Made by a program: the position numbers and the translations under genes. The notes below the pieces were generated by a model that saw only the letters and a list, made by a program, of their open reading frames with translations, was not told the DNA's origin and searched no databases. A DNA stretch of 55,692 nt, filler included, from Sphacelaria rigidula (Eukaryota): NCBI GenBank assembly GCA_964200075.2. It is 5 parts of 5 records of this genome, joined end to end, with 100 filler letters (N's around TTAATTAATTAA, not from the genome) between each part and the next. Parts side by side here need not be neighbours in the genome. Positions count along the whole stretch, not along the records: positions 11,161 to 22,219 come from CAXNAA020005461.1; 4 more parts are not named here. One strand, written 5' to 3'. Below, in pieces: positions 1 through 50,483 of this stretch. The first letter of the stretch is position 1. Each line of letters starts with the position of its first letter.

Positions 1-503
1 TCACGCTGCTCGCTCGTCATACGCGAATAACACCCCTTTGCAGCTTCGAGCATGCAAGACGTGTCCACAGCTACGCGCTGCTCCGGCGGCATTTCCGTGA
101 ACTCGGCATCCACCTGTCCTTCAAGCAGACACCCCTGCGAATCATCTGAAGGATCTCCCGCCATGTCACTGGCGCAGATAGATTCACCATGAGCAGGGCA
201 AGCTCCTAGCTCACGCTGCTCGCTCGCCATACGCGAATAACACCCCCATGCAGCTTCGAGCATGTAAGGCGTGTCCACAGCTACGCGCTGCTCCGGCGGC
301 ATTTCCGTGAACCCGGCGTCCACCTATCCTTCAAGCAGACACCCCTGCGAATCATCTGAAGGATCCCCCGCCATGTCACTGTCGCAGATAGATTCACCAT
401 GAGCAGGGCAAGCTCCTAGCTCACGCTGCTCGCTCGTCATACGCGAATAACACCCCTTTGCAGCTTCGAGCATGCAAGGAGTATCTCCAGCTACGCGCTG
501 GTC
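1..503 (-). repeat. 210-bp tandem repeat (about 2.4 units) encoding a 70-aa unit on the minus strand; second copy of the array at 5384-6005
   Basis: Units start at 1, 211 and 421 (tcacgctgctcgctcg...). They are near-identical to each other and to about 5500-6005. The array is cut by the contig start. Confidence 0.95.
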
Positions 504-879
504 AACCTTTGGAGATACTCACGTTATACTTGTTCACATATAAGCCTACGTATTCGGTAGTTTCCGCCCATTTTCACGCCAGCAGCGGCAATCACCATCG
601 CCCACAGTCAGTTTCTGCAAACCGCACGAAGATGGTTCCACTTTTTGCGCGAACAATAATATACGAGCTTTATTTCATTCAGCACACAGCAGTGTATTGA
701 AAACTGCCTCACTCTGACTCTTCATCAGACATCAGGCATATCTGTCACACCTGCATGCTCATATTTCACTCAGCAGCTTCTTTGCGGAAATAACCATGTA
801 TCATGCGTGCCAACCAGCGCAACACAACAGACAGGTCCAGGAACCATACCACCACCACCTACAATCGTCCACATAACGA

Positions 880-2040
880 TTCAGGTATACAAGTCACAAT
901 GTGCTTCCTCATTCTCAACAAGCAATTCGACTAGTACTTGCTCCTTAACATCACCCAACCCGGCGCTCACCGCATTATCGAGCACCTCAGGCAATGCCTG
1001 CCTTGTAATTCTCCTGCACTCCTCCTGAGAAACAGCAGCTCTCCGGCTACAATCTCGTCCACAACGTAGAGTGGCATTTCCACTCTAACAGTCGCTCCTC
1101 GCATCGATGCAGCTACAGCTCTCACAGCTGTCCCGAAAACCAGTGTGCAATGCCCACTGCACGGCAGGTACCAAACCCACCCAAGCGTTGGCATCGAGTC
1201 TTCCTCTCTGCATTACGACCTTCAAAGAAAATGATCATTCGCTCACATTCACGATGTGACAACCGCGAATTGGCCACCACAAATCTGCGATCCATCAGCG
1301 CCTTCTTGAGCACTCTCACCACACGATTCTCATATTGCAATATCGTATCGCTGACCCATCCCTCCTGCGGCCCCAGCGCTTTGCACCATATCAACAGATG
1401 CTTCACCGTCGTTGCCGCCGTACACGACTCCGCGGGCTCCAACCGCACGAAGTCGCCCGGGTCATCCATCCTTACCAATATGTACTTGACCCGATCTCCT
1501 TTGTCCAAGCCATTATCTCCCAACGGACCACCCTCGTCAACACTGAGAAAATTGAAATGAAAAGCCTTCCCTGGGCGAGCACCATGCACCACCTCCTTGT
1601 GGTGATGGGACACTTTCTCCCCCGCCTTGTATGCACTCATCCAGCGAAAACAGGACTTCTCGGGTGTTGAAATCGCCGCTCTCGCCCACTCTACCTGCAA
1701 ACTACAGTACACGAGCCCGAGCGCCACCAATGTTGCGATGCAGCGTGCCAACCACGCCATTCTGATCGGAAAGTACGCCCTCGGCCGAGCCTTTGCCTCC
1801 ACAGCAACAGGTTTGAATTTCATCTTCCAGTGCTCGACGCGAGCAGGCGGATAACCATGCAGCACTCGCCTAAAAATGCTCGCTCTGTTCCGTACAGGCT
1901 CACGAAGCTGGTTACGTCGCTCTCCGATATGCCGTTATCCGCAGCGGCTTGTACTGCCTCCTCCGGCGCAACATCAAGCTTAGCAAGCTCTTGTTCCGGG
2001 GATATGCTCATCGCCGGACTTCTCGACAACAATCGCTTGA
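880..2040 (-). mobile_element. Degenerate Ty3/Gypsy pol fragment: pre-RT region and RT N-terminus fused to the integrase core
   Basis: ORF 1122-1865 begins with LHGYPPARVE...KARPRAY...GLVY (RT N-terminus). It continues directly into HFNFLSV...YILVRMDD...FVRLEPAESCTA...LLIWCKALG..WVSD (rve integrase), homologous to 7747-9133. Confidence 0.85.
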
Positions 2041-2099
2041 ATGAGGAATAAACGGACTCCGCCGGGGTATTTCAGTGTGTTTGCCTCGAATGACATGTA

Positions 2100-4100
2100 C
2101 CCTGAAACCCCACGAAAACCAGTGTAGATGTGTCAAGTATTCTGGATCTATGTGAGTGACAAATGGTGATGGCGGATATTTGGGACATGAGCAACATCCA
2201 TGAGCTTGGCCACCACGTCCTGCCTGTCACATCTAAAAGCAAGAGACAAATTTCCTCCGCCTACGATCGGGTAATTACTACCACCTGCGCATCGTAGTAC
2301 CCTACCTTGACACTTTTTATACTCCGTCCCCCTACTGGAATCGGGGGAGGAATGCTGGGTAGCCCCCATGCCGAACACCCACGGTCCGCCTTCACCCTGC
2401 TGTGTATCGCCCCCCTGCCGATCATACAATGCGTACTCGCCTATTCCGTCTTCGATGGTGGTGTCGAAAGAGGTGAAAAGCCTCCCCATCCGCGTCCGAG
2501 AAAACTGAGAAGTTGTCGCTGTCGTCGACCGCACCCATGGCAATCACCACATCCTCTTTCTTCCATCTCGATCTCGGACAGTCCCAAAATTTGTACCCCG
2601 ATTGACTGCCCTCGCACAGTATATCTTTGGGCAGTCCTTGGCGCGATGTGTCATCCTCTTCGCAAATGTGGCAGTGGACCAGCTTCACAGTCGCCGGTTT
2701 GCCATCCGGCGATGTCGACCCAGAGCTCTCGAAGTCTGTCTCCCGCCATTTTTCTGACCAGAGCCTTGGGGTATCCCCTGTTTTCCTTTGCGGTGTGCAC
2801 CGCTCGGTTTTCCGGTCCCACCCCTGGCGAGGAGAGCCTGATCGCTGAGGATGTATTCTCTCCCCGGGCAAGTTCCTGCTCGAAAATGGCAAACTCGAAG
2901 CGCTTTCGGACCGAGGTTATCTCAACCTCTCGTGAATGCGACCCCTTCCGATCCCCCAGCAATTGCTTCTGAATATTATACTCGTACGGCAGGGTGTTAA
3001 CAAATTTCAAGAGAATATATTTTCCGCTGAGGGGTTGATGCTACTCGTATGAATTCAGGTCTCTTGCAATGTCTTACATCACCAGCTGCTTCTGCTCTGG
3101 ATCGTCACGAACACTGATATTGACTCCATCAAACTTTGCCAAGAACGCTCGTCTCGCCTCATTTGTGTTGGGGCGAACGACATCTACAAGTTTTCTCCAG
3201 ACTGCACCAGGTGAGTGAAGTCTGAGCAATAAATACATCTCGCTCTCCCTTGCCTTCGAGACCAGCAACAATCATCCGTCTTGCCCTCACTTGGGCTGCC
3301 ATAATGTCATTCCCGTGTCTAGTCTCCAGATATCCCAGTGATAGTTCAGGGTCGCCAACATCTACGTCGTGCAAGAGTCATCCTACGATAGGGGGGGGGG
3401 GGTATTTGATCGCACAATAAAAGAGGCTCAAAAGTGTGTCAGACTACCTGCCACACTCGCGGTGCGCTTGTATTTGGTTCAACACGCTATCAATCGGTAT
3501 CAACGAGCGTTATATATCTATAACAAGCTCGTTCGAGCAACCGTTGCTCCTTTCAAGGACGATTTGATCTGGAATTTCGTGCAAGAAGTGACCCATAATA
3601 CCTCCCCCCCTATCGTAGGATGACTTGCAAACTGTCGCCGGCCATGGTAAACACCCAGTCAATTCCTTCGTCCCTCGCGAAGTTGATAAGCTTATCATGC
3701 TTGAACCGTTCGAACTCTGAGTTTTTCCGTGAAAATTTGGGCACGTTCTGTCGAGAAACGGGCACCAGAAACATTTCCACTGCATCGTACACATAGACTG
3801 CCTCACGTTAGGGGACAGAGCCCCTACGTCCGTCGTCTCTGGCTCCGATGTCCCTGGCATCGCGAGCTCCTTCCTCTGGTCTGGCTTGAGTCCAGATGTA
3901 CTGGCGGTTTCGTCGAGCCCAATTCGTTCTGGAATCCCACTGTGAACCATGGAAACCATCACTATCGAGGACGTCATTGCTTTCAACCCCCCCGGACCCT
4001 CCCACTACCCTCATTCCATTCACTTGACCCAGTAATGCAGTATTGTTTGACTTCAAGTCACGCAGTAGCTCAGCCATGGAACTCAGCAGGCTAGTCACTT
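2100..4100 (-). mobile_element. Degenerate Ty1/Copia gag-protease region
   Basis: Frameshifted pieces: a UBN2-like gag segment (VWRKL...NEARRAFLAKFD...DDP; FVNTLPYEY), zinc-knuckle remnants (CHIC...; FWDCP), and a protease/Pol_BBD-like segment (WVFGMGATQH...GGSNYPIVGGGNL...DVAHVPNIRHHHLS). Confidence 0.8.
3375..3626. mobile_element. MITE (about 252 bp) with G-rich TIRs and 4-bp TSD GCAA, Sola2-like termini, inserted in the Copia gag
   Basis: Left end gagtcatcctacgatagggg...gtatt; right end aatacctccccccctatcgtaggatgactt; flanked by (t)gcaa on both sides. Removal rejoins the gag reading ...AGDSL-HDVDVGDPE. Confidence 0.85.
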
Positions 4101-5383
4101 ACTTTCCCCAACTTTTCAATAGCACCCTGTTCACTGACTACTGGAGAAAATCCACCACATTGATCTGCCATTTTGCCCAACCGGTTGTATTTCGTTTGTC
4201 CTCCTCCTCAAACAAAATCAGAGCTTCAAAAACGGGATGAGATCACCGTCCGGTGCTTACCCACACCAAGTTTCATGCGGTGATATGTATTTTGGGTTAG
4301 CCGAGGAAGCAGTGCGGTTCGGGGCCTGGCACGCACAGTATGCCTGTTCAGCCCGAAGATGGTCACCAGTTGGAATACGCTTATTTAGGTACAGCTCAGA
4401 TGCTTGGATCTTGGTCGTAAGGCTAGCTATTTCGATGATACCCAATGCTCGCTCTGCAACGCTGTTGAACTGGGGTGAGTCTGGAGCTGTCTTTTCCTAT
4501 TTGATCTTTTCCCTGTCACACAGTCGACTGAATGCGCATTCCGACCGAGTGCTAACTAAATGGCTAAATGGCGGCGTTCGTTCTGACGAACAAGATGTAG
4601 ACTGGCGTTCAGAATAGAGTGGATGACAACACAATGCACGACATGAACTAGGTGTCGTTCCAAGACGTGTGTGTCCTCAAGCCCCATTCAGCTGCCCTGC
4701 ATGTTGTTTTTTTCGCTGAAACAAAAGATAGTTACTCACTTGATTACAAAATGTGGCTTACAGGCAGTTTCCGCCCAAAATCAGGTTTAACCCATGTACT
4801 TGTATAGAGCCTACATCAAACAACTTTTTTGTGACATTGAGTGCCCAGGATACGATCAAGATTGAGAAGCGATTAATTATTGAATAGGATAGCTTCAATT
4901 CCGAAATCCCCCCCCAAACCTTTGACGAGGCCCGACACCCTCTCTGTAGTGGCTTGCCACTGAATCCTTCGATATCCCTGTGTAGGATATTGACGTGTAG
5001 CTGTAAGCCCTCGACAGTTAGAGTCAAGGATAAATTGGTCACGTTAGAGTCAAGGATAAAACTCACTCTCAATCAGCGCTAGACCATCAACCTCCCGAAA
5101 CATTGTTATCAACCGCATTTTCTTGGGGATATATATGTGCCAACATATGTTACAAACATGCGGTATAGGCGGGTTTGTTCTCAGCATTACGCCGCGATCA
5201 ACGCCGCCAAATACGCCAAACCTATCCATGCATACATACAGTAGTGCACACGACCACCTCAACACCACGCGACGCTCGTCGTCGCCGCCAGAATTGTGAT
5301 CGCTAACAGCATCACGAGCTTGTAGCTCGCTCTGCGTACCCGCTTCACGCGGGTCACACTCCCCTATTATTTCGATCATACAT

Positions 5384-11060: not shown

Positions 11061-11160
11061 NNNNNNNNNNNNNNNNNNNNNNNNNNNNNNNNNNNNNNNN
11101 NNNNTTAATTAATTAANNNNNNNNNNNNNNNNNNNNNNNNNNNNNNNNNNNNNNNNNNNN
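11061..11160. other. Artificial contig linker (N44-TTAATTAATTAA-N44)
   Basis: Six-frame-stop spacer, identical at four sites. Confidence 0.98.
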
Positions 11161-11356
11161 AGCCGGGACGGAGCACGCCGGGTTTTCGCCGGACCAGGCT
11201 CGCACCCAATTACCAAGTGCCAAGCGCCGTGATGTGTCCGGCGAGTCGCATGAAGGGTGAGCTGTATCCTGCTAAGATTGTTCGGTTCGAAGCGTACTGA
11301 TTCATCTTGCATTTAAATGACAGCCTCCAATAAGTTGCTTTATTTTCTGGTATCGG
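11161..11356 (-). mobile_element. Partial copy of the ~320-bp LINE-tail-related repeat
   Basis: Matches 29370-29700, 43225-43531 and 50484-50802. Cut by the contig start. Confidence 0.85.
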
Positions 11357-12749: not shown

Positions 12750-13430
12750 TTTCTGCCCTCTCAACTTTATTTCTCATGTCTCGGGGTTTCTGTAGTGTAT
12801 GATTCAAACCACCCACTTCAACAAGTTAGCCTTTTGGGAACCCTCCCCTTCCTTCTCCGGGCCAGGCGCCTCATTATTTCGAGCCCTGACAAAGAAAAGG
12901 TGGGAACAGCAAAGGTCGACGGCAACAATATGTTTGTCGGAAGGTCAAAGAATAATCGACCGGCAGCACACGTTATGAACGCACCAAAAATGCCACCCCG
13001 GTACGGTCGGAATAGTTTTGTCCAATGAGGGGACACAACGGGTCAAGCGTGTTCAACTTTGTGCACACAGTCACAACACTCATCACTTGCGTGCCTGAAC
13101 TCTACATACAAAAATCGGCACCACTTGTCTATCTTCTATATATTGAGTCTCATGGTGCACATAGGCAGAGTTTTATAGGGAGCTTAAAAATGCGCCTCGC
13201 GCTAACAATTTCACGTGAAATCCGGAAAAAAGTCGACGATGTCATTAAAAAACAGCACCTCGAAATCCACACTTTTCCATTGCCTATGCCAAAAGGGTTG
13301 GACGCCAAGATGATTTGCACACCAATCACATACTCATATTTAATCCAATACCGGGGTGCCCTCATACCCTCTTTGAATCTTTTGACTTAACTTTCTCCTC
13401 AGAATGAAGGTGCACGTAGTAGCATGTGCT
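12750..13430 (-). mobile_element. Highly decayed RTE-like LINE RT remnant
   Basis: Weak by-eye resemblance to the RT GFRP...L.KAYD...GWF..QG motif spacing across several frames, with many stops. Confidence 0.3.
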
Positions 13431-13599
13431 CGTTTTTTCGGTCATGACGCGAAATTTTACAAATATGATGCGGATGGATTTTTTCAAGGATCAGCCTTGG
13501 GAACGTTCACAAGCGAGCATCGAAATACTTGCGGGGGGAAATACAAATGCATTCTCCGGCCGTGACGTGTGACCTCGCTCACTCGAAACAACAAAGCAG

Positions 13600-16500
13600 C
13601 TTGTTAAATCCCGTGTTTTTCCCAGGAGAGCGGGGAACGAAGGACTTCTTTGTAGGTAACGTCTACATGCCCCCAGAAACGAAGAGTAGGGCAAACGATA
13701 TACAGCGTGCGTTTGGAGAGATAGCAGCAGATGTAAATAAGTATGAAATGCAAGGAGAAGTAATGTTAGTGGGAGATTTCAAGACAAGGGTAGGAAGAGC
13801 AGGCTCACCTGATAATATCATTGAGCAATACGGGGAAGGTGGGAACACGAATGCGGTAGAAATGCTCAAGTTCCTTAAACATAACGAGATGAAGACGCTG
13901 AACGACAGAGCACTAAAGCCAGAGGCGCAATGGAAATGGACTCGAAAATGCAAAGACGATAGAACGCTCCGTTCTTGACTATTTAGTGCTAGGGCATGGA
14001 AATAGTAAAGAAATGGAAGTACATGTATGCGCGGAGGACGTGGGAACCACAGATCATTGCCTAATATGGACAGAAAGCCATCAGACGAGAGCTAAAACAA
14101 ATAGGCAGACTAGGGAGTTGTAAAAATGGAGAATCGATAAACGAGATATGCAAAAAAAACCAGCAAGAGTTCCAAGAAGAGATGTTCAAAAACGTAGACA
14201 AATATTCCGAGCTGTTGGAACGCGTAGGTACAGTTGATACCGGAATGGGAAGAAATCGGGCAGGAGCGAAGGTCATAGAAGGGCGGGAGTAGTTGGTCAA
14301 GAAAACAGCGAGTAAAGTCGTAGGGAAGGAACTGATAGTATGAAACAGAGCAGTGAAATGGTGGGGTGAAGAAGTAAAGAGGCTGTAAGAGCAAGGAGAG
14401 AGGTACACGCGAGATGCATATCGAGTAGAGCTACTGCAGGATGGGAGGAGTGTACTAAAGCTCGAAATAAAGTGAAGAAGATGGTACAGAAGAAGTAAAA
14501 GGGCCTATGGAAAGATGTAGTGAAATAAACAAATGAAGATTTCGATGGCGGGGTCAAACAAACGTGGGTAGGCATACAACGGATAACGAGAAACCAGGCA
14601 GAGAACATGGACAAGGGGATAGCCACACTCCGGGCACTGAACGGTAAAATGGCCAGGAGTTCGGAGAGGAAGAGAGAAGATCTAGTCGAGCACTACCGTA
14701 AACTAGGAAAATCAAAAACTGACACGAAGTTCGACACGGAATTCGAAAAAGAAATCAATACGTGGGCAGAGGCAGGTGTAGAGAAGTCAAAACGGAAGGA
14801 TAAAGGCTCGAAATAATTGCAGCAAGAGTTTACCAGAGATGAAGTGAAGGAGCGCGTAGCTAAACTCAAGAAGACAGCAGGGGCAGACGGAATAGTGAAC
14901 GAAATTGCGAGGTAGGGGAGAGAGCCGATGGTTACCGTGATGGTTACGCTATGTAACTGGATCTGGGAAAACGAGTACACACCCAAGAGGTGGAGAAAAG
15001 GAGTAGTCGTCAACCTTTTCGAGAGAGGAGGCAAAGCTGATCCAGGACATTGTAGAGGGATGGCGGTACTGAGCACGGTAGGGAAAACCTTCTGTGAATT
15101 CTGAACGATGGAGTAGGAACGATGCTAGAAACGGACGAAAAAATCAGCGAGGGGCAAGCAGGATTTAGACCAAACCGTAGTTGCGTAAACCGTGTGGACA
15201 CACTAGGTAAGATTATTCAAGGCAGGAAAGGCACCAGGCTGACAACGTACTGTTTCTTTATGGACGTGCATAAGGCTTATGGCACAGTATGGAGAAAAGG
15301 ACTGTGAAACAAGTTGTGGGAAGTTGAGATCAGTAAAAGATGTGGTGAATGGTAGAGAAAATGGCAGAATGTGCCAAAAGCCCTATGATGCTAGACGGGG
15401 AAATATCGAAATATTTTGATATTTTACGAGGAGTTGCACAAGGATGTACGTTATCACCCACTTCGTTCAAGATATGTATCAATGACTTGATGATAGCAAT
15501 AGAAGCAGCAAAGCAAGGGATCAAGGTGGGTAAAGATACGGTATCAGGATTGACGTTCACGGATGATTTTGTGGGCATTTCAGCAAGATCAGAAGCATTA
15601 TAGACACAGATAGGCAAGGCGCTAGAATATAGTAGAGAATGGAGAGTAACAGCAAACGCAAACAAATGCACGGTACTTGTCCGTGACGAAGATAAGAAAA
15701 ATCCGGTTGAGTTCAAATGGAAGTAGGGAGAAGAGGAACTGCCGATCGTAGACCAGTGCACATACCTTGGCGTAGAGGTCGAGGAAAACTGTTCTGGAGA
15801 TGCACACATAAACAGAGTAATAGGAAAGGGTGAGGCACAGATAGGCGGGATGGACGTGATCCTCAGAGACCCGCACCTAGACACTAGAATTATAGGGTGT
15901 ATCCTGATAAACGTGATTCTACCAAAGCTGGAATATGCAGGAGAAGTATGGGAGGGGAACGTGAAGTTGGTGAAGAAGTTAGAAACACAGTACAGATGGC
16001 AGCAGCTAAGAAAATACGTGGATGCTCGAAAACGACGAGTAGTACAGCATTAAGAGCAGAGTTGGGAATGTACTCACTTGAAGCAAACAGGAACATGAGG
16101 AAATTGCGATGGCAATATAGCGTAAAGAAAATGCAGAGAAAGAGATTGCCAGCTATAGTTGATAGGGCTGTAAGGAAGAAAACGAAAGAGCGGGCTGGGA
16201 AAAGGTGGGAAAGAGAGGTCGAGAAAGTGTGGAAGGAGGTAGGAAAAAAGCAAGACGAAATACTGTCTATAGATGAAGGTGCGGGGTACAAGGCAAAAGT
16301 AAGAGATATGATCGAAATAAGGGAAAAAGGAGCGCTCAGACGCAAAGTAAACGGGGAAGAACACCTGGCGATATACGGGGGGTTGAGAGAGGGGATAGGG
16401 ATGGAAGCATATTTATTTGCATGGCTCAACGGACGCCGCGAAACATTCGAGATTGCGATTTCGGGTGGGGGATCTGGACCTGCCAGAAAGAAGGAAGAGA

Positions 16501-16903
16501 TTCACCAGTAGTCGAGAGGAGGAGAACGTAGACACACAGAATTGCACCTGTGGCAAAGCAATAGAGAGCAGAACTCATATAGTGGCAGAATGTGAACTAC
16601 ACAAGGAGGAACGGGGCGTGCTAGAGGGGGAAATGCCGGATGTGAAAGAAGGTGGCATGGCATCGTTTGATGCATTAGGCAGAAGCGAAAAAACTATGGC
16701 TATACTAGGAGATAGATGGTGGCCAGAGACGGCGAAACAGGACGGGAATAAAATATGCAAAAGGTTTTTGTGCAACGTAGACTCTAATGAGCGCCGGAAT
16801 GTTGCAGGTGTCTCTGTTAGGAGTAGAAACGGTGCTCCGTCTCGAAAGGGATTCGTCGTCAATGGTCAAACGACTAAGGCAAGCAACAAATGGGTACGCC
16901 CCC
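13600..16903 (+). mobile_element. Non-LTR retrotransposon (LINE), near-complete ORF2 (APE endonuclease, RT, CCHC finger), 5'-truncated and pseudogenised
   Basis: APE: VGNVYMPP...LVGDFKTRVG...LDYLV...TDHCLI. RT: QAGFRPNRSC...FMDVHKAYGTVWRKGL...GVAQGCTLSP..F...INDL...FTDDFV...YLGV. Zinc finger: CTCGKAIESRTHIVAEC. Many stops and frameshifts. Ends ...aaatgggtacgccccc. Confidence 0.95.
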
Positions 16904-17129
16904 ATTTCGCGCCCGCCTCCTGCAAAATAGGGAGTGTGGTGGCGAGAACAGTGGAACTAAACCGAGGTTCATGCCACGAGCTTGTGAAAGACGAACTTGA
17001 TGTGACCATGGCTATGGCACATGAAAGGTGACCTGTTTTCGATGAGACTTCGGAATGTTGATGCGCAACCCCCTCCGGCCTCCAAGCACCCTTGCCGCTT
17101 CTTAGGTTGCAGGGAATATTAAGGGTCTG

Positions 17130-22219: not shown

Positions 22220-22319
22220 NNNNNNNNNNNNNNNNNNNNNNNNNNNNNNNNNNNNNNNNNNNNTTAATTAATTAANNNNNNNNNNNNNNNNNNNNNNNNN
22301 NNNNNNNNNNNNNNNNNNN
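22220..22319. other. Artificial contig linker
   Basis: N44-TTAATTAATTAA-N44. Confidence 0.98.
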
Positions 22320-24048
22320 CCCCCCCCCCCCCCCCCCCCTCCTCGGGATAGCGCCCGTAATCTCGAGGGACCAATCCAGCTGTCACCACCCACCCACCCC
22401 CGGTGTTGGCCCGATGTAATGGTTATTTTCGCCCCTTGGAAGCAGCCTAGCCTTCCCTCCACCGGGAACCCCCCTCCCGTCATTTGTCGGGATCACTGGG
22501 AAAAGCGTTGGTTGTTACGCTGCTGGAGCAGAGGTTTCCCGGCCGTGCCACGTTTTGCTGGATTCAGTTGCAAATTTTTAGCTTTGACTTTGACTTTCGC
22601 TTTGGCCCGTTCCTCCTTTTTTCGTTTGAACCAGGGAAGCCTATCCAAAAGAAGAGTGATTGTAAGTTTATTTTTGGCGTTAAAGATATGACCCGCATGC
22701 CGTTTGTATATGGCCTGTGATGGATTCAACTTGCGGAATAACCATGGGGGTTCGGTCCGCGTGTCTTTCAGCTTCGTTGACGTTGAGTTGTACATCGGCA
22801 CTCATGTTTTATCGATATGTCGTATCGCGTCGGTAATTGGCATCGATATCACCAAGTTGCCGATCCCAGCTATTAGGTATGTATAGATCATTATTCAATG
22901 GATGAGTACCGAAATACGAGCGGGGTAGGGTAGCGCTATTGCCTGGCGTCTCGAGGCGTGATCAAGCGGTGAGATTTTCGCGATATGTGGCCATGATTTC
23001 AGCATTTCCCACTGGTGCATGACGCTACAGTATACGCATCACGCTTCACTAAAACTAAAATGAAAACGCGGAGGGGAGAAGGTTATCTAAGGCGAGGGGA
23101 CTAGTCCGTCAACTCTGGTAGGGTCTCTCGTCTGAGATGGGCCAAAGGGTATGTGGCCATGTACCGTTTTTTTCAAGTTTTTTTTGCGGAATTCGGCCGC
23201 GAGTCGGGGGTATCGACCTCAGGTAACGACTGAAAAGAGAACGAAAGGCGTAACTGAGCCGCAAGAGTTGCCTGGAAACCATCTCCACACCCCCTCACGG
23301 AGCAGGATAGATGAGGTAATTTCACGAGTATTCATGCGTATAGGGTCGCCGGTACTGCAGTTGTGTTTGTTTGCACAAAGTTTTCAGGTCTATTTCGAGG
23401 GAGAAGAACGTAATATATGCCTCGGTACAGAAATGAGTACAAATCATTCTGCGAAAACATAAGGCGGATATCCATTACGAGTATTGCACTTTTTGATTCG
23501 TGATACTGTACAAGTGTCATAATCCTGTTGGCAGTTTGTGTTAGCCTATATTTTTCTCACTGTGTGGTACGGTACACTGCTCTTTCAGCCTGATGTGGAG
23601 CAGTTGACGGAATAGTTTTATGTGCAGTACGTTTCGTTCGAACAGTCATTCTCATGTCATTCCTTGCATGGACATTGTGGTGTATTGTAGTTTGTGATTA
23701 CATACGCAGCAGGCGTCGATCTCATGTAAGGAATGGTTATGGTCGGTGCTTGAAAAGGCGAGTCTACGCTTATGACCACGGGTTGGAGAAATCGGGCTAA
23801 TGTGCGGAAATTATGACGATCACCAGGGCGACCACGCTAGAGGGGGCTATATGAGCGAAGTAGGTTACAATCGCTACAAGCGCAGAGCGCGGAGGTTGAG
23901 GAAGTCGCCGGACCGCGCTGTAGTGGGACCCCCATCTATGTATCAAGTTCGCATCGTGATATTGTTAGTCACCCAGTGTTTTTTTTCTTCGTCCCGTCCC
24001 ATCCCGTCTCGTCCTGTTCAATTTATTCGGTGCTTGTCTGTTTTGCAG

Positions 24049-24131: not shown

Positions 24132-25139
24132 GTGAGGCATGCTCACATGGTCACATGCACATTAACGTGGTCATGTGCACGTTGAAGACGGGGAATAGTC
24201 GGGACGTTGATCGTTTCGTGTGCATGTTTGCTCGAGTACAAAATTAAGCGCCGTGGCCCGGTAATATAACCGATGATTGATCGATTTCGACTGGTGGATT
24301 GGTTGAACGCTTGATTGTCGCGCACTACTGAACAATAACTGATAACTGATGAGCTCCGTATCCAGCCGAGTCACAAGGCAGACGCAAGCGCCCAAGGTGA
24401 AACGACGGAAATACCGCTAGAGGAACTTCTATGGTACGCCCCCTTTCGAGACGGAGCACCAGTTCGGTCAAGGGGGAGGGTAAAGGAGCAAATGCGGAGT
24501 TACCTAGCCTTATTTTTCACGTATCGCGGACGTTCGTGTGGCGTGCGTTTTCGTGTACATTTGTCACACAAATAACCATGTCTTCGGTGAGCTCAAACGT
24601 CTCGTGCCATCAAGATTACGTGGGCATCCTGCTAGCATGGCCTGTCCATCTCCGTTTCGTCGCAACTGCCCTCCATAGATGAACATGGCGAGAAACACCG
24701 CACAACTTGTATGACAGCATGCCACAGGTCAAGCCTACCACACAACACAGATGGAGACACAAGACGGGTTGACGGATTTCATGAAAGGAATGACCAAGAA
24801 ACACGTACCGTATGACAGCTGAAACGGTAGATGGCTGTCACCGCGTGTTGATCAGTGATGGTTGAAGATTGGGTATCCCTGAATGCTATCCAATGATACT
24901 TTTAAGTCCAATTTGCACTGAGCGTTGTGCAGTGATACTGGATAAACTGGACCGTCATGGAATGCTGTGCACGTGAGGAGAAGGAAGTACCTCGATTATA
25001 CGGAACATTTTCCAGTGCTCTTTTCTCCTATCCACATCTACACACATACACACTGCGGTTCACGCAAGTTCGTCGTCAAATCACCCCGGTTGAAGAATAA
25101 AGGGTTCTCGTGTTCGTACGGCCACCAGATTCAGATCTT

Positions 25140-29369: not shown

Positions 29370-29700
29370 TTTTAGATCAGTGGGTGTACTCATGATCATG
29401 CATGCCATAGTCATGAGATCATTGACCTCGCATCCCACAAATATATAAAAGAAACATGGATCATGCCGGGTTTTCGCCGGACCAGTCTCGCACTCAGTCA
29501 CCAAGCGCGAAGCGCTGTGGTGTATTCGGCGAGTCGCATGAAGGGTGAGCTACATCCTGCTNNNNNNNNNNTGTTCGACCCGAAGCCTACTGATAATCTT
29601 ACATTTGGATGACAGCCTCCAATGAGTTGCCTGTTTTTGTGGTATCGCCACTTCCAGGGAAAGCCACGGATTATACACTGCCTCATGGGTGTCTCACCAT
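29370..29700 (-). mobile_element. ~320-bp LINE-tail-related repeat (SINE-like)
   Basis: Colinear with 43225-43531 and 50484-50802. The sense 3' end is ...atcatgagtacaccc. Confidence 0.85.
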
Positions 29701-30559
29701 TCCAGATCAGTGGATGGAAACTCTTGGTGCACCAGTGTCCAGTTGCTGTATTACTCGGGAAGCACACGCCCCCGAGCTGCCACCCCACCTTTACAGCCAT
29801 TGTGAAGATAACAAAACAAGAGCACGAACAGCAGCACTTGTGGACACCACACACCAACGTAACTGCAGTGAAAGGCGTGCCTGACAAAGTGCTAGAACGA
29901 GAAAGTACAGGAACTTTGAGACCATGAGCTGCAACGTCGCGCATATGGAAACTACTGAGAACGATGTTGATGATGTTGACGTGCAAGAGGTTCACGCTGT
30001 GCAGATTGACTGCGCGCTGCATGCTCTACACATAGCTGTGACTGCAGGATTGGAGAGTCAAGTTTTCATGGGCCCTATGGGGTCAGGGTCATGGCATGAG
30101 TGGGAGGAATCCCATCTCGTCATTCGCTTGGGCACGCATTCTCGCACACAGATGGGTGTAGAACACCACCCAGTATATCGCAACTGGCTAGGTTCATCAG
30201 GCAGTCGCCCACTAGGACCAGCAACGTCATGTCCATGTTCAGCAACTCGTGGTCAATGTTGGTCAGTGGTGTGGCTTTCTTCAACTCCGACTACGTGCCT
30301 GAAGATCACTCTGATGGGTGCGACATGCTAGGTATGAAGGCCGTGGGTCTGGTACACTCTGTCCAGACCAACATATTCAACGTCAATTTTCCCCTAATTT
30401 CAAAATCTGGTAAGGGACAAAGTTAGACACACGTGTCAAATAACAATTGTGAGGCCGGCAGAGACGAGATGGATGGTGATATGGGAGAGAGCGACGCTCC
30501 CCAAATGAGGTGAATTGGTTAGTCACCGACTGCGCTCCTTACCGCCTCTTATAGTACCC

Positions 30560-32428: not shown

Positions 32429-33244
32429 AGCATCCGGCCTCACCAGACCACTTTTTGTAGCGGATGCGAATACTTTCGAATGGATGTTCAAGCATTGGGG
32501 GTATCAATTAGCACCATTTCTGACCCTGGAGCACGAAATAACGCCTGCACACGTCTCAGACACTGTGCAACAGATCACCGTGAGAACTCTTGCCCCATTT
32601 TTCCAACTCGCTGGGCTTCGACGTTTCGGAATGATCACTTGCCAAAAGTCAAAACTCCAACTGGATGGGTATGGAAATATGTGGAGAGAGTATCAAAATC
32701 ACGAAACTATCGTATAATAGGTGGCATTCTGTTTCACCATGTCCAACTGGAGTTCGGCGAGTGGTCATTCGCGAAACTCCAACCCAAGAGCTTCGCGAGT
32801 TGGAATAGTGAGTTACTCCAGTCTGCTCGAAGTGACGTGATGCTTTCTGTCCGCAACACCTGCGGCGGCGACATATATTTCCTGTTTTGAGGTGAACAAC
32901 AGAACGGAGAAAAAGTCTCAGCTGTTTCAAGACGCAAATTTTTCGATTCAAATTTTCGAATGCCTGGAAACAAAGGAGCGAGCGGCCTCAGGTACCTGAA
33001 GAATATATTCTTCCTTTTCCTTCTTTTACTCCATAAATTTTAGAGTATATCGCCCGTCCTTACCTTCCCTCTGTCCGTCCCTCTGTTAGATAAGTTTTCA
33101 ATATTCCGACTGATTTCTTCCTGACCCTCAGACCGCGATGCAGGTAGTCCATTTGAATCACACTGTTTACAAATGAAATTGATGCCGATTCAGCAGGTGA
33201 CCTACCCTCGCGGTCAAACGGTGATCGAGGCACTTTTTTTCAGA

Positions 33245-33305
33245 GAGAGGGGGGGAGGGCGAGGCGTACTCATTTGTTGCATGCCTTAGTTGTTTGACCA
33301 TTGAC
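33245..33305 (-). mobile_element. Extreme 3' fragment of the LINE family with a C-rich tail
   Basis: The sense strand reads gtcaatggtcaaacaactaaggcatgcaacaaatgagtacgcctcgccctccccc. Confidence 0.85.
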
Positions 33306-33309
33306 ACGG

Positions 33310-33378
33310 AGGACGGAGGGGGGTGTACTTATGATCATGCATGCCATAGTCATCAGACCATTGAACTCGCATCCCTAC
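33310..33378 (-). mobile_element. 3' end of the ~320-bp repeat, abutting the LINE fragment and cut by the contig end
   Basis: gggggtgtacttatgatcatgcatgccatagtcatcagaccattgaactcgcatccctac. Confidence 0.85.
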
Positions 33379-33478
33379 NNNNNNNNNNNNNNNNNNNNNN
33401 NNNNNNNNNNNNNNNNNNNNNNTTAATTAATTAANNNNNNNNNNNNNNNNNNNNNNNNNNNNNNNNNNNNNNNNNNNN
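33379..33478. other. Artificial contig linker
   Basis: N44-TTAATTAATTAA-N44. Confidence 0.98.
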
Positions 33479-33479
33479 G

Positions 33480-33670
33480 ACTTCTTCTCTCTATTGCTTT
33501 GCCACAGAGGCAGTTCTATGCATCTCCTTCCTCCTCCACACGACTACTGGTATATCTCTTCCTTCTTTCTGGCAGGTCTACGTCCCCCACCCGAAATCGC
33601 AGTTTCATTTTTTCGCCGCGCCCATGGGGCCATGCAGATATGTTTTCATCCCTATCCCCTCCCTCAACCC
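33480..33670 (-). mobile_element. LINE ORF2 C-terminal fragment (same family as 13600-16903)
   Basis: Matches 16380-16570 and 48270-48460. Confidence 0.85.
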
Positions 33671-33711
33671 CACCGTTCGTCCAAAATCCCCATGTCTTCG
33701 TCTACCGTCAC

Positions 33712-36807: not shown

Positions 36808-37594
36808 TAGAATGGTGCCCCAAGTACGGCAAACCGTGCTGTACCTAACAAGCAGCAGCGACAACGACAGCAGCAGCAGTAGCCAGGACGATGACGCCAA
36901 CGAAAACAAATCTGAGCGATAGCATGTACACTGTACCACAGCTATAAGGCCATAGCTCAAGGGCGCACTGGATACTTATTCTTCCGTATCCCCAACAAAC
37001 AGCACTACAAATTCCACGAAAAAATCCAACTCCAGCATCGCAATTGAAAAAAGTACTTTCCCTAAGCAATGAATGTTTGGATTCCAAAAGCGAACCTTCC
37101 GCCTGTGGTATTGAAGGGGTGATACACAACGTACCACAATACAGTACTTGGGGTGCTGGCATTGCCCCAACAACAGTCGAGATCCATCTCCCGCGGGTGC
37201 CAAGCAAGCCACCATTGCTGCACATGGTACTGGTATGACGCCGTGTAGCCAACAGAATCCAACCTCAAGCCATTCCCCGACTCCTGCACGACTTACGACT
37301 ACGGTATGCAAGATCATGAGTACACCTCCACGACCAACGTTTCAGTCCCCGTTTTGCACTCGAAAAACCGACAAACCTTGGGTTGTGTCCCGCTGTCTGC
37401 TAAGATATACCCTAAACTCTGACCTGAAACCTCTCCACTCCGACCTTAAATCTCAGCTAAACCCGCCCCAGACACAGGAAGAAAAAAAGGTTGATACAAG
37501 CATGAATTCATGCAGGGTAAAAAGGTGGAACCATGGGTTCGCCTGGTCTCATGATATGACACATCTAACCTTGGATATCGCTAGTGAGAAATAA

Positions 37595-40216: not shown

Positions 40217-41257
40217 CACTTCAGTATCGAGATATCTCCGCACGACACCGGATTTGCTCGACATGGCGTCTCACTCAACGAGAGAGCACCTGACCGGGCT
40301 GTTGGGTACATGAGCACCTTCCCCTTGATCACACGATTCAAAAATGTGCGGATCACGACCAAATTCATCCGCGTCAATGAGACATGGCTGCGAAAGTTGA
40401 AATCCATTTTTTCAGGCTGGCCCAACCTCGTACAAAGCCAAGATCTGTTCCCATACGGATCTTTCATCAGTCAGGCAAAACCGACAGCAAGTCCAAGCCA
40501 CAGCTACGGATATTGACAATGAACAAACCGGAACCAACCCAATCCTGCTCGGTACTGCGGATTTTCCGGTCAGGTGAACCGAAACACACTTTACCTTACA
40601 TCGGCAGAACCGTTTCCAATGCACCCTACCCGCAACTCTAACCTTGCCCCTAACAACGGCAGACTTTGGACTCTCACGACAGCACGGGGGTCCTCCCCAT
40701 CTGCGCTGGGAACACAGTGCTGGCCCGCTAATAAGAAGCATCTTTGTCAAAATTTGAGTCTCAGTTTTTCTAAAAACTGAGGAGACTACCGCAAAGAGTT
40801 GAGCTCAAAATATGGGACATAATAAGAAATGAAGCGGCAGGAAATCAATGAATACCGTACAACGAAAGTCCGTACGTAGGAAGAATAACTGGAGTAAGAA
40901 ACGTGAAGAAACTGCTGGATTGGGAATAAGAAGTAGATGCAGCTTTCTTTGTCAGACAGAAGAAACGGAGAAACAGGAAATAACGTTCATATCGGCTGCC
41001 AAAGTAAGGTTTTGAGTCATGCTCAAAATAACTGTTTCTCATTTGTGGGCCGGTACTGTACCGTGTAGTGCGGCGTGATGTGCAGTTGTTGCCGACAAGC
41101 AAGTGGAACAAGGGTGGTCCTGACGGCAGGGAGCCCGGAGGCGCTCAGTCGAGTAAAAATCTTGCATAAACATCGGTAAACATGAAAAGTCATTTTCCAC
41201 AATTTTTTGTGTTTCGTTACATTCCTACCCTACTCCATCTGTTATAGCGCCTTGCCG

Positions 41258-43224: not shown

Positions 43225-43531
43225 CGGGGGGGTACCTCATGATATTATATACCGTGGTCATATGATCATTGATCTCGCATTCCTACAAAGCCGGGACGGA
43301 GCACCCCGGGCTTTGGCCGGACCAGGCTCGCAATCAATCACCAACCGCGAAGCGCCGTGATGTGCCCGGCGAGTCGCAGAAGGGCGAGCTGCATCCTACT
43401 AATTGTTGGACCCGGAGCGTACCAATGATCTCGCACATGGACAATAGCCTCGAACACTTTGCTTAATTATCTGGTATTGCCACTTCCAGAGACAGCCACG
43501 GCATACACACTGCCTCCATTGTGTCTCATCA
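43225..43531 (-). mobile_element. ~320-bp LINE-tail-related repeat
   Basis: Full copy; the sense 3' end is ...atcatgaggtacccccccg. Confidence 0.85.
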
Positions 43532-43891
43532 CTTTACACTACGTAGTACAATGACCCCGTTTGCGCGCTCAGGAGGGGGACGAGAAGAGGGGGGGGGCGG
43601 GGCAGGTCAAGAGTGCAACGATGGCAAAGAGGGAAAATGTATCCTCACCAGATGGCATAAAACCTGCATCCGAGAATAATGATTTCGCTTCCTGCACCTT
43701 CGATGGAGTAACGGTAGCGGTTACCCTGACACCTTCCGCGAGAAGTTCTCTGGGTCGAGGAAGTGAACAATCAGAAACAAAACATCAACGAAAAAAACAG
43801 TGTAGGTGCGTGTTCAAACGAGGTTTGCGCGGGCAAAGTGCTGCCGTTAGTATCGAACGCCCCTTCCTGCCCCCCGCCCACCACCCCCGAT

Positions 43892-44087
43892 AGACGGCGA
43901 AACAGTAAGGAGATAAGAGCTGTAAAGGGGTTTTGGTGCGGTGTATGGAAGAAACATAATGAGCGCCAAAATGTTGAAGGTATCTCGAATAGGAGTAGAA
44001 ACGGTGCTCCGTCTGGAAAGGGATGCGGGGGGTCAGTGTTAAATGACAAAGGCAAGCAACAAATCAGTACGCCGTCGCTCCCCACCA
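43892..44087 (+). mobile_element. LINE 3' fragment flanked by C-rich tracts
   Basis: Matches 16727-16903 (gacggcgaaacag...ggtgctccgtc...ggcaagcaacaaatcagtacgcc). Confidence 0.85.
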
Positions 44088-44239
44088 CAAAACCAGTACT
44101 ACACTTTCTTGCTCGCGCTCGTTTTAGCAGTAATAATAGTAGGGATGGCGACAGGGCTAACGACCGTTTCTGAAGAATAAGCCCTGGCCGATAAGGCATG
44201 CCTTACTTTTTGCCCTAGAGCCCCTCTTCGAAAAGGGGT

Positions 44240-44536: not shown

Positions 44537-44636
44537 NNNNNNNNNNNNNNNNNNNNNNNNNNNNNNNNNNNNNNNNNNNNTTAATTAATTAANNNNNNNN
44601 NNNNNNNNNNNNNNNNNNNNNNNNNNNNNNNNNNNN
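44537..44636. other. Artificial contig linker
   Basis: N44-TTAATTAATTAA-N44. Confidence 0.98.
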
Positions 44637-45904
44637 CCCTGTGTATATGGGGTGGTTTTTTTCCCCCTCCTCGGCTCCCCCCCTGGTGCCCCCCCCCCCC
44701 CCCCCTCTCCCCCCAACCTAACTCTCGAACATGAATGTATATTCAAGAGTAGTCTGAAGGCGTTCCACCGCACGTGAAGCGCGTGGCTCGTCGTGCAGCA
44801 CTTCGGCCGATGACTTTGCTTTTTTCCGGGTGTCGTTTTATCTATTGGTGTGTCATATGCACATACCGACCATTTTTTTGTGGTGACCCCGTGTGACCGT
44901 CTCATCTGCCTGTGGTGAAAAAAACAACAAAAAGAGCTCATGTGTGCATTTGATTTTCCATGCGAAATGTGTCATCTCAGTGACTACGTGCACAGGGGAG
45001 GATCCCGCTACAGTGCGGTCCTTCAGAGTCCGCGGTTCCACCGCAGTGCGGTGAAAATCACATGTCACACTAAATACCAAGTGATGAAACTATTTTACCG
45101 GTACAGCACATTTTATGCATGCTGCGATAGTTGCTGAAGCCTCGCGAAACCTGTTCTCATTACACACGCGTTCGTATCGATGTTTCTCTCGGGTGCTGTG
45201 TTCCGTCCACCTTGGTGCCATGTATATACATATATTACATATGAAAAGGTTCGAGAGCATTTGTTGAAGAGCTCCGTTCCTTCCCAGGACGGCGAAGAGA
45301 CTGGAAGGCGAGGTCACCGTCGCCATACTTCGGCTGTAACTTCAAGCGGGGAAGGCGCTGATAGCAGTAGACGGGCGGAGACGACGGCAGGAACGGAGTG
45401 TCAACCGGGCGTGATATTTTCCGTTTTCCGAGGTCGTGGTACATAGCATCTCATGTCGGTGAAATGAGTTTTCATAGTGTTGTTTAAATATGGTGCCATG
45501 TTGGGAGGTGAAACGTTCGTGATTGGCTGACGGGGAGATGCGTGAACTTGACTGCTGTACGGCGCTGTGTCATGTTTGCACGCAGCCATTTGATGTGGGA
45601 GGTCGCCCTTTCCCTTCCTCTCCCCTTCCTGAAAATTTTGTTTTGTCGGAAGTTTTTTTCTTTTCTTTTTTAGGCTGTGTCCATTTTCGGAGGCGGGTTT
45701 TGAGTATCGTGTTTGCCTGCTGGCTCTGTTTTGTGTAGGGTTGAAAATCACGATGACGAAGGGATAATGCTGCACGTACCTTTTTTAATTTATTCATGGG
45801 GACAGAGATGGTGGAAGGGGAGATCGGAAGGATAGGGGGGGACGGGGGGGAGAGGGGGGGGGGGAATGTTGGNNNNNNNNNTGTATTTGTTTTTTTTTGT
45901 TTGG

Positions 45905-45924
45905 TGGGGGGGGGGGGGGGGGGG

Positions 45925-45976
<52 letters not shown>
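45905..45976 (+). repeat. Long poly-G tract
   Basis: About 70 nt, almost pure G, next to a small N gap. The length may be unreliable. Confidence 0.8.
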
Positions 45977-45978
<2 letters not shown>

Positions 45979-46851: not shown

Positions 46852-47897
46852 AGATACTCAATCACTACCGTGGAGTCATGGCCACGGTTTTGAGGGAGCA
46901 CCTGCAACCCCGTGTTGTCAAGTTTCAGAATGGCCTAGTAACGCGGGGGCAGGGGGTTGGGGGGGTGGGCACAATGATGATTTAGGGAGATTGAAGGTTG
47001 GGTGAGGGATCCTAGTGGAGACGCTGGGAATTCGCGACCTTTCGCATGAGAGTCATAAATACGCCATGAGAAAGTTCCGCCACGTGACATTACCCGGTAT
47101 ATAGCTTGTGTGGCGGACTAGCCGATCAACTTTGCGATAGGCATATTATCTCATCTCCCATTTAGTTTTTTGTTCACCACAGACGTTTGCCGAGGGCTAA
47201 CCCTTAGCATGCGTGAAATGAGCGCCTTCCGCTTCCCCCCCCCCCCGCTTCCCCTGGGCTTGAGGGTACAAGTATGTCGTGTTGAAGTCGAGAATGAGGG
47301 TCGTCCTGAGACTTCTCCTTTAGGCTTCCTTGGGGACGGCCATGGTTGTTTGGATGTTGAAGATGCGATTTTTGTAGTGAGGATGAAGACGAGACAAGAA
47401 AAAATCTTGCACGAAAATTGGCCGGCCCTTCGATGTTGTGTAGAAAGGAAGGAAAAAGAAATGTCTTCCTAGAAGGAATGAGAAGGTAGGTCCTACTGAA
47501 AGTGAAGAAGGATGAATTTGGCTGTTCTGGGTCTTATTTGATTGGCGTGATATTTTGGTATTTTTGTTTTGTTTTGTTGATTGTTGGGATAGGTAGTAAT
47601 ATCCTTGTTTTAGTAGCTGGGGATGTAGCGCGATTATTACCTCTGTGTTTGATTATTTTATCCCAATGTTGCACGTAGTTGTTGATGTTACTGTCGCATT
47701 GCGACTGGGGGGGGGGGGGGGGGAGGGGGAAGGTACGGCTTATTTAGACATAGTACTAGGATATTATCACCTATCCGGTGTCGCGCGGTTCACAGTCCGT
47801 CGTATTTACACGAGTTGTCGATGCTGTACATAACGGTAATAGCATAAAAGGGAGTCAAGTAGCAAAAACGTTGTTGTTTGAGAGTCATGCTACAATA

Positions 47898-49590: not shown

Positions 49591-49614
49591 ACGAGCTGGG
49601 CCAGCCTAGAGGCG

Positions 49615-49925
49615 GATTTGAAGTTTGCAGGCCCATGCTCCCGCCAGTACTTAGAGTTGGACCCTGAAATTTGGCATGAACAATAAATAGGGCATGAAAA
49701 ACAAGATACATCATCGGCACCAAAAAAAATATTTCATTTTTTTCATGAATTGAAGGCATTTTACTGATACCTGAAAACTGATTATTGCTCAAAACTCATG
49801 AAAAAAACAAAAAAAGTGCTGGTTCCGATTATATATTTTTTCATGCCCTATTCGTTGTCCATATCACATTTCAGGGCCCAACTCTAAATAATATTGGCGG
49901 GAGCATAGGCCTTTCAAAAACCGGG
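49615..49925. mobile_element. Palindromic MITE
   Basis: ggcccatgctcccgcca...ttagagttggaccctgaaat...tagggcatgaaaaa pairs with tttttcatgcccta...atttcagggcccaactctaa...tggcgggagcataggcc. Confidence 0.8.
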
Positions 49926-50483
49926 TCAGTAGAAATTCGGAACAGTATTTCGCAGGCCACTTACCGGCCCGTGTATGGTTTTCGTGTATTGAAATTTTGT
50001 GTGGGCGCTCTCTAAGGCATAATTATCAAAACAAAGTGGGTCAGGTTTCTTTTTTTCATTTTTTCACTGGTTTACGGCGTTCTACTGTGTGGTAAAGACC
50101 ATTTGTTCACGAGAACGCCCTAGCCTCTATGAAAGAAAAAAAATGAAGGCCCATTTTTTTTTATTCCACACTCTTTTTTTTATGGTTCTCCACACCAAAA
50201 TCCGTCGCCGCCATCCGCTAAATGCATCGATCGGGAGTTTCATAGAGATTTTAGTACTGGCGCTATCTCCCTCAGGTATAGGAATTACTAGGCATGGGGT
50301 TTAATCAACGAGAAAATATGGGCCCAAACTTTTGAGCAGATGGGCACCTTCCCCTTGATTATTAGACGATCAACACGATATGCGAATCACGGCCCAACTC
50401 GTCTGTGTCGATGAGATATTGCTTTTAGAGCTTGAATCCGTTTTTAGGCTAGCCCAGCTCGTAGTGTGTTCTACTGTAAATAA

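Follow-up and report, generated by a model that had tools for sequence, protein, structure and literature searches.

C-runs at the 3′ ends of a brown-algal LINE and its non-autonomous partner in Sphacelaria rigidula

A 55,692-nt stretch of DNA from Sphacelaria rigidula (assembly GCA_964200075.2), referred to here as the window, contains several copies of a long interspersed element (LINE) whose 3′ ends run directly into C-rich sequence. The association of this element with C-tracts is real, and it is genome-wide in the sequencing runs examined. Two clear target-site duplications (TSDs), C-rich 5′ flanks and head-to-tail arrays favor insertion at the 5′ edge of C-runs. The best explanation, to which we assign a probability of about 0.6, is target-primed insertion at the edge of C/G-runs, an account that takes in the anatomy of the LINE, its arrays and a short non-autonomous partner that would be mobilized in the same way.

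C-runs at the 3′ termini

The window is made up of five pieces of ~11 kb joined by filler spacers at 11061-11160, 22220-22319, 33379-33478 and 44537-44636, each of the form N44-TTAATTAATTAA-N44, and features that touch the edge of a piece are cut, as is the case for a LINE fragment at 33479 and a non-autonomous copy at 11161. The pattern CAAATSRGTACG, allowing at most one mismatch, has six matches in the window as against 0.93 expected, a number reached in 0/100 shuffles. Five of these matches are LINE ends, located at 16887-16898 (+), 33265-33276 (-), 44060-44071 (+), 47933-47944 (-) and 51526-51537 (-). The sixth (35132, +, one mismatch) has neither LINE sequence upstream nor a C-run and was set aside as a chance match.

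All five LINE ends terminate in ...AAATGAGTACG or a one-base variant of it, and C-rich sequence begins at once. The numbers of C residues after the terminal G are 6, 7, 6, 9 and 9 in the next 10 nt and 12, 15, 11, 18 and 15 in the next 20 nt, as compared with a mean of 2.44 in the next 10 nt at 737 control TAC[GA] sites of the window, where at least 7 C are found at 6/737 sites with the element ends included. The sequence-only reading of this DNA had already described five 3′ ends, spread over four unlinked contigs, that run into C-rich sequence and carry no A-rich or trinucleotide tail, and had further noted C-rich sequence on the 5′ side of three short copies. Each of these descriptions stands: the ends are located on four of the five pieces, a poly(A) or trinucleotide tail was found at 0/5 of them, and the short copies are preceded by C6 (before 33317), by a C-rich stretch (~43859-43888) and by C9GCC (51582-51593), respectively.

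Similar ends can be found in public contigs. These were searched with a 21-nt pattern reaching no farther than the stop codon, and therefore blind to downstream sequence, yielding six loci, four in metagenome contigs and two in prokaryote “genome” contigs. LINE ends account for 4/6, and all four run (G/C)TACG and then C8, C11, C10 and C13, whereas L004 and L006 are unrelated chance matches. The genome bin G001 contributes one copy of the LINE 3′ end only (L007), and the viral contigs searched gave 0 matches. At least CC directly follows the terminus at 9/9 LINE ends and at 5/5 non-autonomous ends; C makes up 5-10 of the next 10 nt, and the number of leading C's varies among copies from C2 to C13. 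An A-run adjoins the terminus at 0/14 of these ends, LINE and non-autonomous ends combined, so that they lack the poly(A) tail of the L1 type.

The terminus was also followed in Logan contigs of four sequencing runs (X1, X2, X4 and X6), aligned to L007 at 80% likeness. The tallies of loose ends and joints given here and below are those among the matches listed, and the contigs provide no distribution of run lengths, given that k-mer assembly collapses long runs. The best-supported loose ends fall at L007 positions 95-96 in X1 (1690 + 484 contigs) and X2 (1570 + 447 contigs), at positions 95 and 97 in X4 (756 + 336 contigs) and at positions 94-98 in X6 (14 + 101 + 50 + 56 contigs). Read in element orientation, the loose-end consensus in the four runs continues as more C and then as unalike sequence, with no A/T run. 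Depth was not used as a measure of abundance: the bin holding the terminus and C-run reaches 9.8 million in X1 as against 0.0004-2.2 million in the other bins, a value that is not a copy number, and the G13 run may attract unrelated contigs.

Short A-runs are present farther downstream. Runs of A4-A7 reside 17-25 nt downstream at 4/5 window LINE ends, and more broadly 12-25 nt past the ends at 16898, 33265, 44071, 51526 and 29386, and in L002. A-runs beyond the C tract are found at 6/14 ends as compared with 14.5% of random 30-nt windows (binomial p ~0.01), a weak and unexplained signal, and A-runs follow 12/58 of all C6+ runs.

The LINE, its partner and their arrays

The ORF (open reading frame) pieces of 13400-17000 match RVT_1, and a 207-aa ORF piece of copy 1 retrieved P0002 and P0004, full-length relatives of 1360 and 1328 aa, respectively. 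Exo_endo_phos and RVT_1 domains are present in both proteins and in the ORF of L007, which agrees with the apurinic-type (APE) endonuclease and reverse transcriptase (RT) assignments made from the sequence alone. The LINE encodes a single ORF of ~1360 aa comprising an AP-type endonuclease, a reverse transcriptase and a C-terminal Cys/His motif. In L007 (G001:C43), the ORF is intact (116-4192, minus strand), with 1382 aa open, no stops and 88% identity to P0002, and the terminus is laid out as stop codon (115-113), GTACG (112-108) and C13 (107-95). P0002, P0004 and the intact L007 copy all end in ...KASNK and a stop codon, TGA, that is located inside ...AAATGAGTACG, 5 nt before the terminus; the element therefore has almost no 3′ untranslated region (UTR) and no poly(A). 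The L007 contig covers at least 5152 nt of element and stops short of its 5′ end. Because the element is cut in this way, the missing 5′ C-run is uninformative and no TSD can be obtained.

All named homologs of P0002 come from Ectocarpus sp. CCAP 1310/34, the closest being 71% identical over residues 900-1360. Matches of the P0002 reverse transcriptase in the PDB (L1 ORF2p and R2) are distant, human L1 ORF2p giving E = 6.6e-21 over ~390 residues, and a clade placement by way of these matches was dropped as they are too distant to be informative. Upstream of the L007 ORF, at the contig edge (5135-5259, minus strand), a ~62-nt direct repeat is present about twice (...gacatagacat.aaa.tact.aactaaccagttttttttt), and joints of Logan contigs at L007 position 5190 point to variation in the repeat or to the boundary of an element at this place. 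Bin G001 is labelled uncultured bacterium and holds, in addition to this intact LINE of brown-algal type, a distant RT gene, L008 (G001:C51, 33% identity); both are probably eukaryotic contamination.

Copy 1 (13568-16898, +) aligns by tblastn to residues 248-1360 of the 1360-aa P0002 over 13568-16890, in six pieces that occupy frames 2, 3, 2, 1, 3 and 1 at 54-73% identity. Because this alignment starts at residue 248 and changes frame five times, copy 1 is a dead, 5′-truncated copy of a brown-algal LINE, for which RTE-X is the published label of the matching Ectocarpus families. Its end reads ...CAAATGGGTACG, its stop codon is mutated (TGA to TGG), and it is adjoined at 16899-16920 (+) by C5 and then the C-rich sequence CCCCCATTTCGCGCCCGCCTCC, with 12 C in the first 20 nt. 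Copy 4 (47933-49592, -), likewise 5′-truncated and decayed, was recovered as two blastn pieces and by tblastn, and is followed by a 35-nt C-rich tract (C7 T C11 TCTCCTCCCCCTCCCC; 47898-47932, -). It also carries an internal tandem duplication of ~335 nt, in which the part corresponding to 16054-16389 of copy 1 occurs twice, at ~48797-49073 and below.

The remaining copies are shorter. Copy 3 (43889-44071, +) consists of the last ~183 nt (blastn 76.5%; nhmmer E = 5.8e-18), with a mutated stop codon (TCA), and its C-rich 5′ flank (43859-43888, +) has the 8-mer CCCACCAC in common with the 3′ flank at 44072-44088, a marginal match that is equalled in 54/500 shuffles. Copy 5 (51526-51574, -) comprises the last ~49 nt at 96% identity to copy 1 (blastn; nhmmer E = 3.7e-14) and is followed by C9GC6 (51510-51525, -), the first 12 nt of which, CCCCCCCCCGCC, are repeated as a TSD in the 5′-side tract at 51582-51593. 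A short 3′ unit of ~53 nt (33265-33317, -; nhmmer E = 9.7e-11) starts ...TCCGTC right after C6, lacks an internal stretch that the other copies have in the alignment and runs into the C-rich tract CCTCGCCCTCCCCCCCTCTCTCTG (33241-33264, -) as read from the sequence. Finally, a LINE fragment cut by a piece start (33479-33676, -) covers residues ~1190-1253 (blastn 82% over 203 nt; tblastn).

A non-autonomous partner of ~310 nt came to light among the weaker window matches to an nhmmer profile of the last ~64 nt of the LINE. From ...GTGCTCCGTC onward, its own last ~60-66 nt can be aligned to the tail of the LINE, and this is also the point at which array units begin. The copy at 29386-29701 (-, ~316 nt) ends in ...GATCATGAGTACA, has a 10-nt TSD, CCACTGATCT, and matches two other copies at 72-75% by blastn. 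Those at 43228-43534 (-) and 50482-50784 (+) end in ...ATCATGAGGTAC followed by C6GTCCTC and in ...GATCGTGACTAC followed by CCTCCCCCCTCCCCCCCC, respectively. A fourth, at 11161-11355 (-; blastn 80% over 195 nt), is 5′-truncated, has its 3′ end cut by the piece start and bears a ~40-nt C-rich tract directly on its 5′ side. In addition, a 3′ end of this type (...GGCATGCATGATCATAAGTACA; nhmmer E = 7e-06) followed by C6 occupies 33324-33378 (-), cut by the piece end, and a short 3′ fragment (...GATCATGAGTACA) followed by CCTCCACG is found at 37294-37329 (+). CC comes next after 5/5 partner 3′ ends, with 5-8 C in the following 10 nt. A conserved 3′ stem-loop was considered but is not supported, the consensus fold having 11 pairs with 2 compensatory changes and a covariation of +0.2, and the single-sequence z being -0.17.

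The two elements meet at 33378-33241, where a tail of the non-autonomous type, C6, a tail of the LINE type and a C-rich tract succeed one another head-to-tail. Because the two tails belong to different subfamilies, this arrangement represents two separate insertions. Such arrays are common in the Logan contigs, in which 12 listed joints go back 73-81 nt, from L007 positions 171-175 to 95-101. The joint from 173 to 95 is represented by 43, 13, 33 and 2 contigs in X1, X4, X2 and X6, respectively, and loose ends “behind 173” with a long homopolymer (G-run) consensus by 354 contigs in X4, 394 in X2 and 69 in X6. These joints are head-to-tail arrays of a unit consisting of the last 66 nt and a C-run. 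Array units start preferentially at ~173, within the C-rich patch that comes first when reading upstream from the terminus (GCTCCGTCTC); such a position would fit microhomology joining to a C-ended target strand.

Comparable elements are recorded in the supplement to a 2025 Genome Biology study of the transposable elements of Ectocarpus. Its table entries describe RTEX-1a_Ec32 (5867 bp) as “single EN-RT ORF; (C)n 3′” with a “C-rich” TSD and RTEX-2_Ec32 as having “(C)n termini/TSD” (PMC12477816, supplementary file 1), and they characterize the non-autonomous RTEX-N1a_Ec32 as “60 bp 3′ end 83% RTEX-1_Ec32/RTEX-2_Ec32” and “can be present in tandem”, again with a “C-rich” TSD (PMC12477816). According to the same source, the best blastp matches of RTE-X are RTEX-4_NV and RTEX-1_BF (PMC12477816), and RTE-X, with 16,418 copies and 3.41% of the Ectocarpus genome, is among its most abundant families (PMC12477816, Table 1). 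By these entries, RTEX-1/-2_Ec32 share with the window LINE the single EN-RT ORF, the (C)n 3′ end and a brown-algal host, and their consensuses of 5.5-5.9 kb are compatible with the length of at least 5152 nt seen in L007; this match is one of description and of named protein homologs. Likewise, RTEX-N1/-N2_Ec32 resemble the window partner in having ~60 bp of the LINE 3′ end in common and in occurring in tandem. Their listed lengths of 604-607 nt (N1) and 188 nt (N2) differ from the ~310 nt of the window partner, which may reflect another species or another subfamily. On these descriptions, the window LINE appears to match the Ectocarpus RTE-X in the features compared, TSDs that start with C's being clear in 2/8 copies with two flanks, and RTE-X serves here as the published label.

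Target-site duplications and the mode of insertion

Whether the C's belong to the element or to its target can be judged from TSDs. For the eight window copies with two flanks, 45 nt on each side were searched for common words, with 500 shuffles as control. The LINE copy at 51526-51574 has the 12-nt TSD given above, which starts 0 nt past the 3′ end (0/500 shuffles), and the partner copy at 29386-29701 has the 10-nt TSD, which starts 2 nt past the end (1/500 shuffles). Because these TSDs begin 0-2 nt past the last base, the C's that follow the two copies are target DNA, and any added tail in them is therefore at most 2 nt. The sequence-only reading had offered two options, insertion at G/C tracts or an RNA that ends in oligo-C; the former is the better supported, by two significant TSDs starting with C's 0-2 nt past the end, by C-rich 5′ flanks and by arrays, and an RNA with C's at its 3′ end may operate alongside it.

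In the mechanism that we favor, the LINE would integrate through target-primed reverse transcription where the top strand of the target starts with C's. A nick in the bottom strand, presumably placed at the G-run edge, would yield a 3′ end of G's that primes cDNA synthesis right at ...GUACG. Since the C's do not come from polyadenylation, they would have to stem either from a read-through template or from the target, and priming would probably be aided by pairing with a few C's on read-through transcripts that originate from the C-run of the parent copy. The TSD would thus begin with the C-run, such that every copy would have C's after it and often also before it. Each insertion would duplicate its C-run, new insertions behind older copies would build up head-to-tail arrays, and the ~310-nt partner, having the same last ~60-66 nt, would be mobilized likewise.

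Several observations weigh against this mechanism. A significant TSD is seen in only 2/8 two-flanked copies. The flank comparison foreseen in the sequence-only reading gave TSDs starting with C's in two copies, marginal 8-mers in two (54 and 68 of 500 shuffles) and none in four. The four without a TSD are LINE copies 1 and 4 and the partner copies at 43228 and 50482, whose 5′ boundaries as placed have no C-run; these copies are old, and their boundaries are uncertain. Consequently, a target repeat is not found on both sides of nearly every copy, 4/8 being without a C-rich 5′ side at the placed boundary. Moreover, the TSD CCACTGATCT begins with just two C's, so insertion can do without a long C-run. 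At L001, L003 and L007, whose 5′ ends lie outside their contigs, pure C8-C13 ends abruptly and gives way to unrelated sequence, and a templated (C)n tail combined with a non-C TSD would look alike. In sum, the association with C-runs points to a preference and not to strict target specificity, the test being weakened by the age of the copies and their uncertain boundaries.

Some of these points would also be expected if the C-run were a tail of the element itself, templated by its RNA and changed in length by slippage of the reverse transcriptase at initiation, with no preference for C at the insertion site. C-rich 5′ flanks and arrays would then stem from template jumps or later unequal crossing-over, and the tail would be likened to the repeat tails of RTE, CR1 and L2. 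The variation in leading C's from C2 to C13, the clean C8-C13 followed by unrelated sequence at L001, L003 and L007, and the 5′ boundaries without a C-run in 4/8 copies are all consistent with this explanation, as is the 3′ module common to the LINE and its partner. A module of this kind is typical of LINEs that recognize their own tail, such as UnaL2 with UnaSINE1. The curators' entry “(C)n 3′” for RTEX-1a_Ec32 agrees with an own tail as well, yet in the same supplement the TSDs are given as “C-rich”, and those of RTEX-2 as “(C)n termini/TSD” (PMC12477816). It is also difficult to reconcile an own tail with two significant TSDs that start 0-2 nt past GTAC(G/A) with the C's included, in particular at the 29386 copy, where just CCC follows the end and two of its C's are within the TSD. 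Furthermore, the array at 33378-33241 unites two subfamilies, for which separate insertions fit better than one template jump. An own tail is therefore considered unlikely, albeit the most serious competitor to target-primed insertion at C/G-runs.

Conceivably, the C/G homopolymers of this genome are simply fragile and often-broken sites, for instance owing to structure-prone G-runs, and the LINE uses the breaks as primers in endonuclease-independent or opportunistic insertion, with no sequence choice by its endonuclease. Short, heavily 5′-truncated copies and arrays are indeed frequent, and 20/24 of the window runs of at least 8 listed are unattached to LINE or partner, the longest being 50. 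Break repair, however, would hardly give the precise junction observed, with the same end base (GTACG) and the run starting at once at 14/14 ends, and the regular 10-12-nt TSDs indicate staggered nicking instead; the ORF also retains an intact endonuclease domain. We regard this explanation as improbable. Still less weight, and in practice hardly any, attaches to the notion that the C-runs arose by chance or through sequencing or assembly error at repeat edges. Homopolymers are error-prone, and one long C-run of the window adjoins an N9 gap (45873-45881), but the same junction is shared by five window copies, four independent public assemblies and contigs of four runs, and it is this recurrence in independent data sets that refutes an artefact. 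The trait is also present in the supplementary entries of a curated library from a near-complete genome (PMC12477816).

A broader proposal is that a homopolymer-directed LINE, acting through a nick at the G-run edge and pairing of the G primer with C's on the RNA, could together with its partner be a main engine that creates and extends G/C homopolymers in brown-algal genomes. From the sequence features at hand this seems possible, but we hold it tentatively and would not expect it to prove correct. A contribution to the many G/C runs of this genome had been suggested in the sequence-only reading and is weakly supported: 4/24 of the C-runs of at least 8 listed in the window adjoin LINE or partner ends (50795, 51593, 51525 and 47924), whereas the other 20/24 do not. 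If the LINE does duplicate and seed G/C runs, it would shape structure-prone DNA genome-wide.

Known elements and other C-runs

That LINEs of this brown-algal group end in C-runs is already known, recorded as a curators' comment in a supplementary table. The sequence-only reading knew of no poly(C)-specific family and counted an earlier description with this property against its proposal; such a description exists, as “(C)n 3′” and “C-rich” TSDs appear in the table entries of PMC12477816. The term “C-rich” is absent from the main text of that paper, the passages of which considered here do not discuss the trait. Literature searches for a LINE with a poly-C tail or poly-C target, or for a mechanism specific to (C)n/(G)n, returned this Ectocarpus supplement only; the “poly-C” of a Blepharisma paper refers to the terminal inverted repeat (TIR) of a DNA transposon and not to a LINE. 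What is new here is accordingly detail, namely the positions of the TSDs, the arrays and the 66-nt module common to both elements, and not discovery. For annotation, it follows that a C/G-run after ...GAGTACG marks the end of the LINE or its partner in brown-algal genomes, and that poly(A) is not to be expected.

Similarities extend to LINEs of the RTE clade with short repeat tails: they likewise encode one EN-RT ORF, their 3′ UTR is very short, they end in a simple repeat without poly(A), and they have partners with a common extreme 3′ end. The repeat associated with the window LINE differs in being mononucleotide C and, according to at least two TSDs, in being target sequence rather than an added tail. 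Mammalian L1 has a poly(A) tail that pairs with the T-rich nicked strand. The logic proposed for the window LINE would be the same, in that the primer at the nick pairs with a homopolymer at the RNA 3′ end and the element tends to land in a homopolymer of this kind, older copies' tails among them; the letter, however, is C and not A. A C-homopolymer LINE would be a natural counterpart to the A/T logic of L1, and it would make it possible to test the shares of primer-template pairing and of endonuclease choice in site selection.

Waldo, Mino, Kibi and Koshi, from the R1 and Tx1 clades, are LINEs that insert specifically into microsatellites. As with these, the same simple repeat can flank the window LINE at either end, and head-to-tail arrays arise through repeated insertion, but the window LINE belongs to another clade by its published label, its target is a homopolymer and its specificity looks loose. 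Nothing found here supports the comparison with R1/Tx1 made in the sequence-only reading, the label of the matching families being RTE-X in the Ectocarpus entries. Among further records of RTE elements, the table entries for RTE-1/-2_Ec32 give “(CAA)n 3′” (PMC12477816), and lepidopteran RTEs are stated to seed microsatellites (PMC2887409).

Elsewhere in the window, the 20 unattached C-runs include those at 3391-3402, 22320-22339, 44689-44705, 47235-47246, 47707-47723 and 53075-53086. A cluster of C50, C21 and C11 resides beside the N9 gap at 45854-45977 (-), where CCAACATT(A) directly precedes a run twice; no recognizable tail of the LINE family is found upstream of this cluster, which could mark where a different C-ended repeat family terminates, or else a fault in the assembly. 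A TATCGTAGGATGACTC-like motif after three C-runs (at 3391, at 47898 and in L003) was set aside, as BLAST returned no significant match for it. At 24441-24456 (-), 16 nt match the beginning of the 66-nt tail module (CTCCGTCTCGAAAGGG), and C-rich CCCTCCCCC lies ~20 nt upstream; at an nhmmer E of 0.07, this match may be due to chance. A separate repeat that ends ...TTTTTAGGCT(G/A)GCCCAGCTCGTAG is located at 40250-40432 (+), 50281-50463 (+) and ~49598-49680 (-); it directly abuts LINE copy 4 and the 50482 non-autonomous copy at their 5′ boundaries, and stands alone at 40432, an arrangement that may reflect a preferred neighbor or coincidence. Lastly, a C22 run at 55613-55634, also among those unattached, sits between ATTAAT words.

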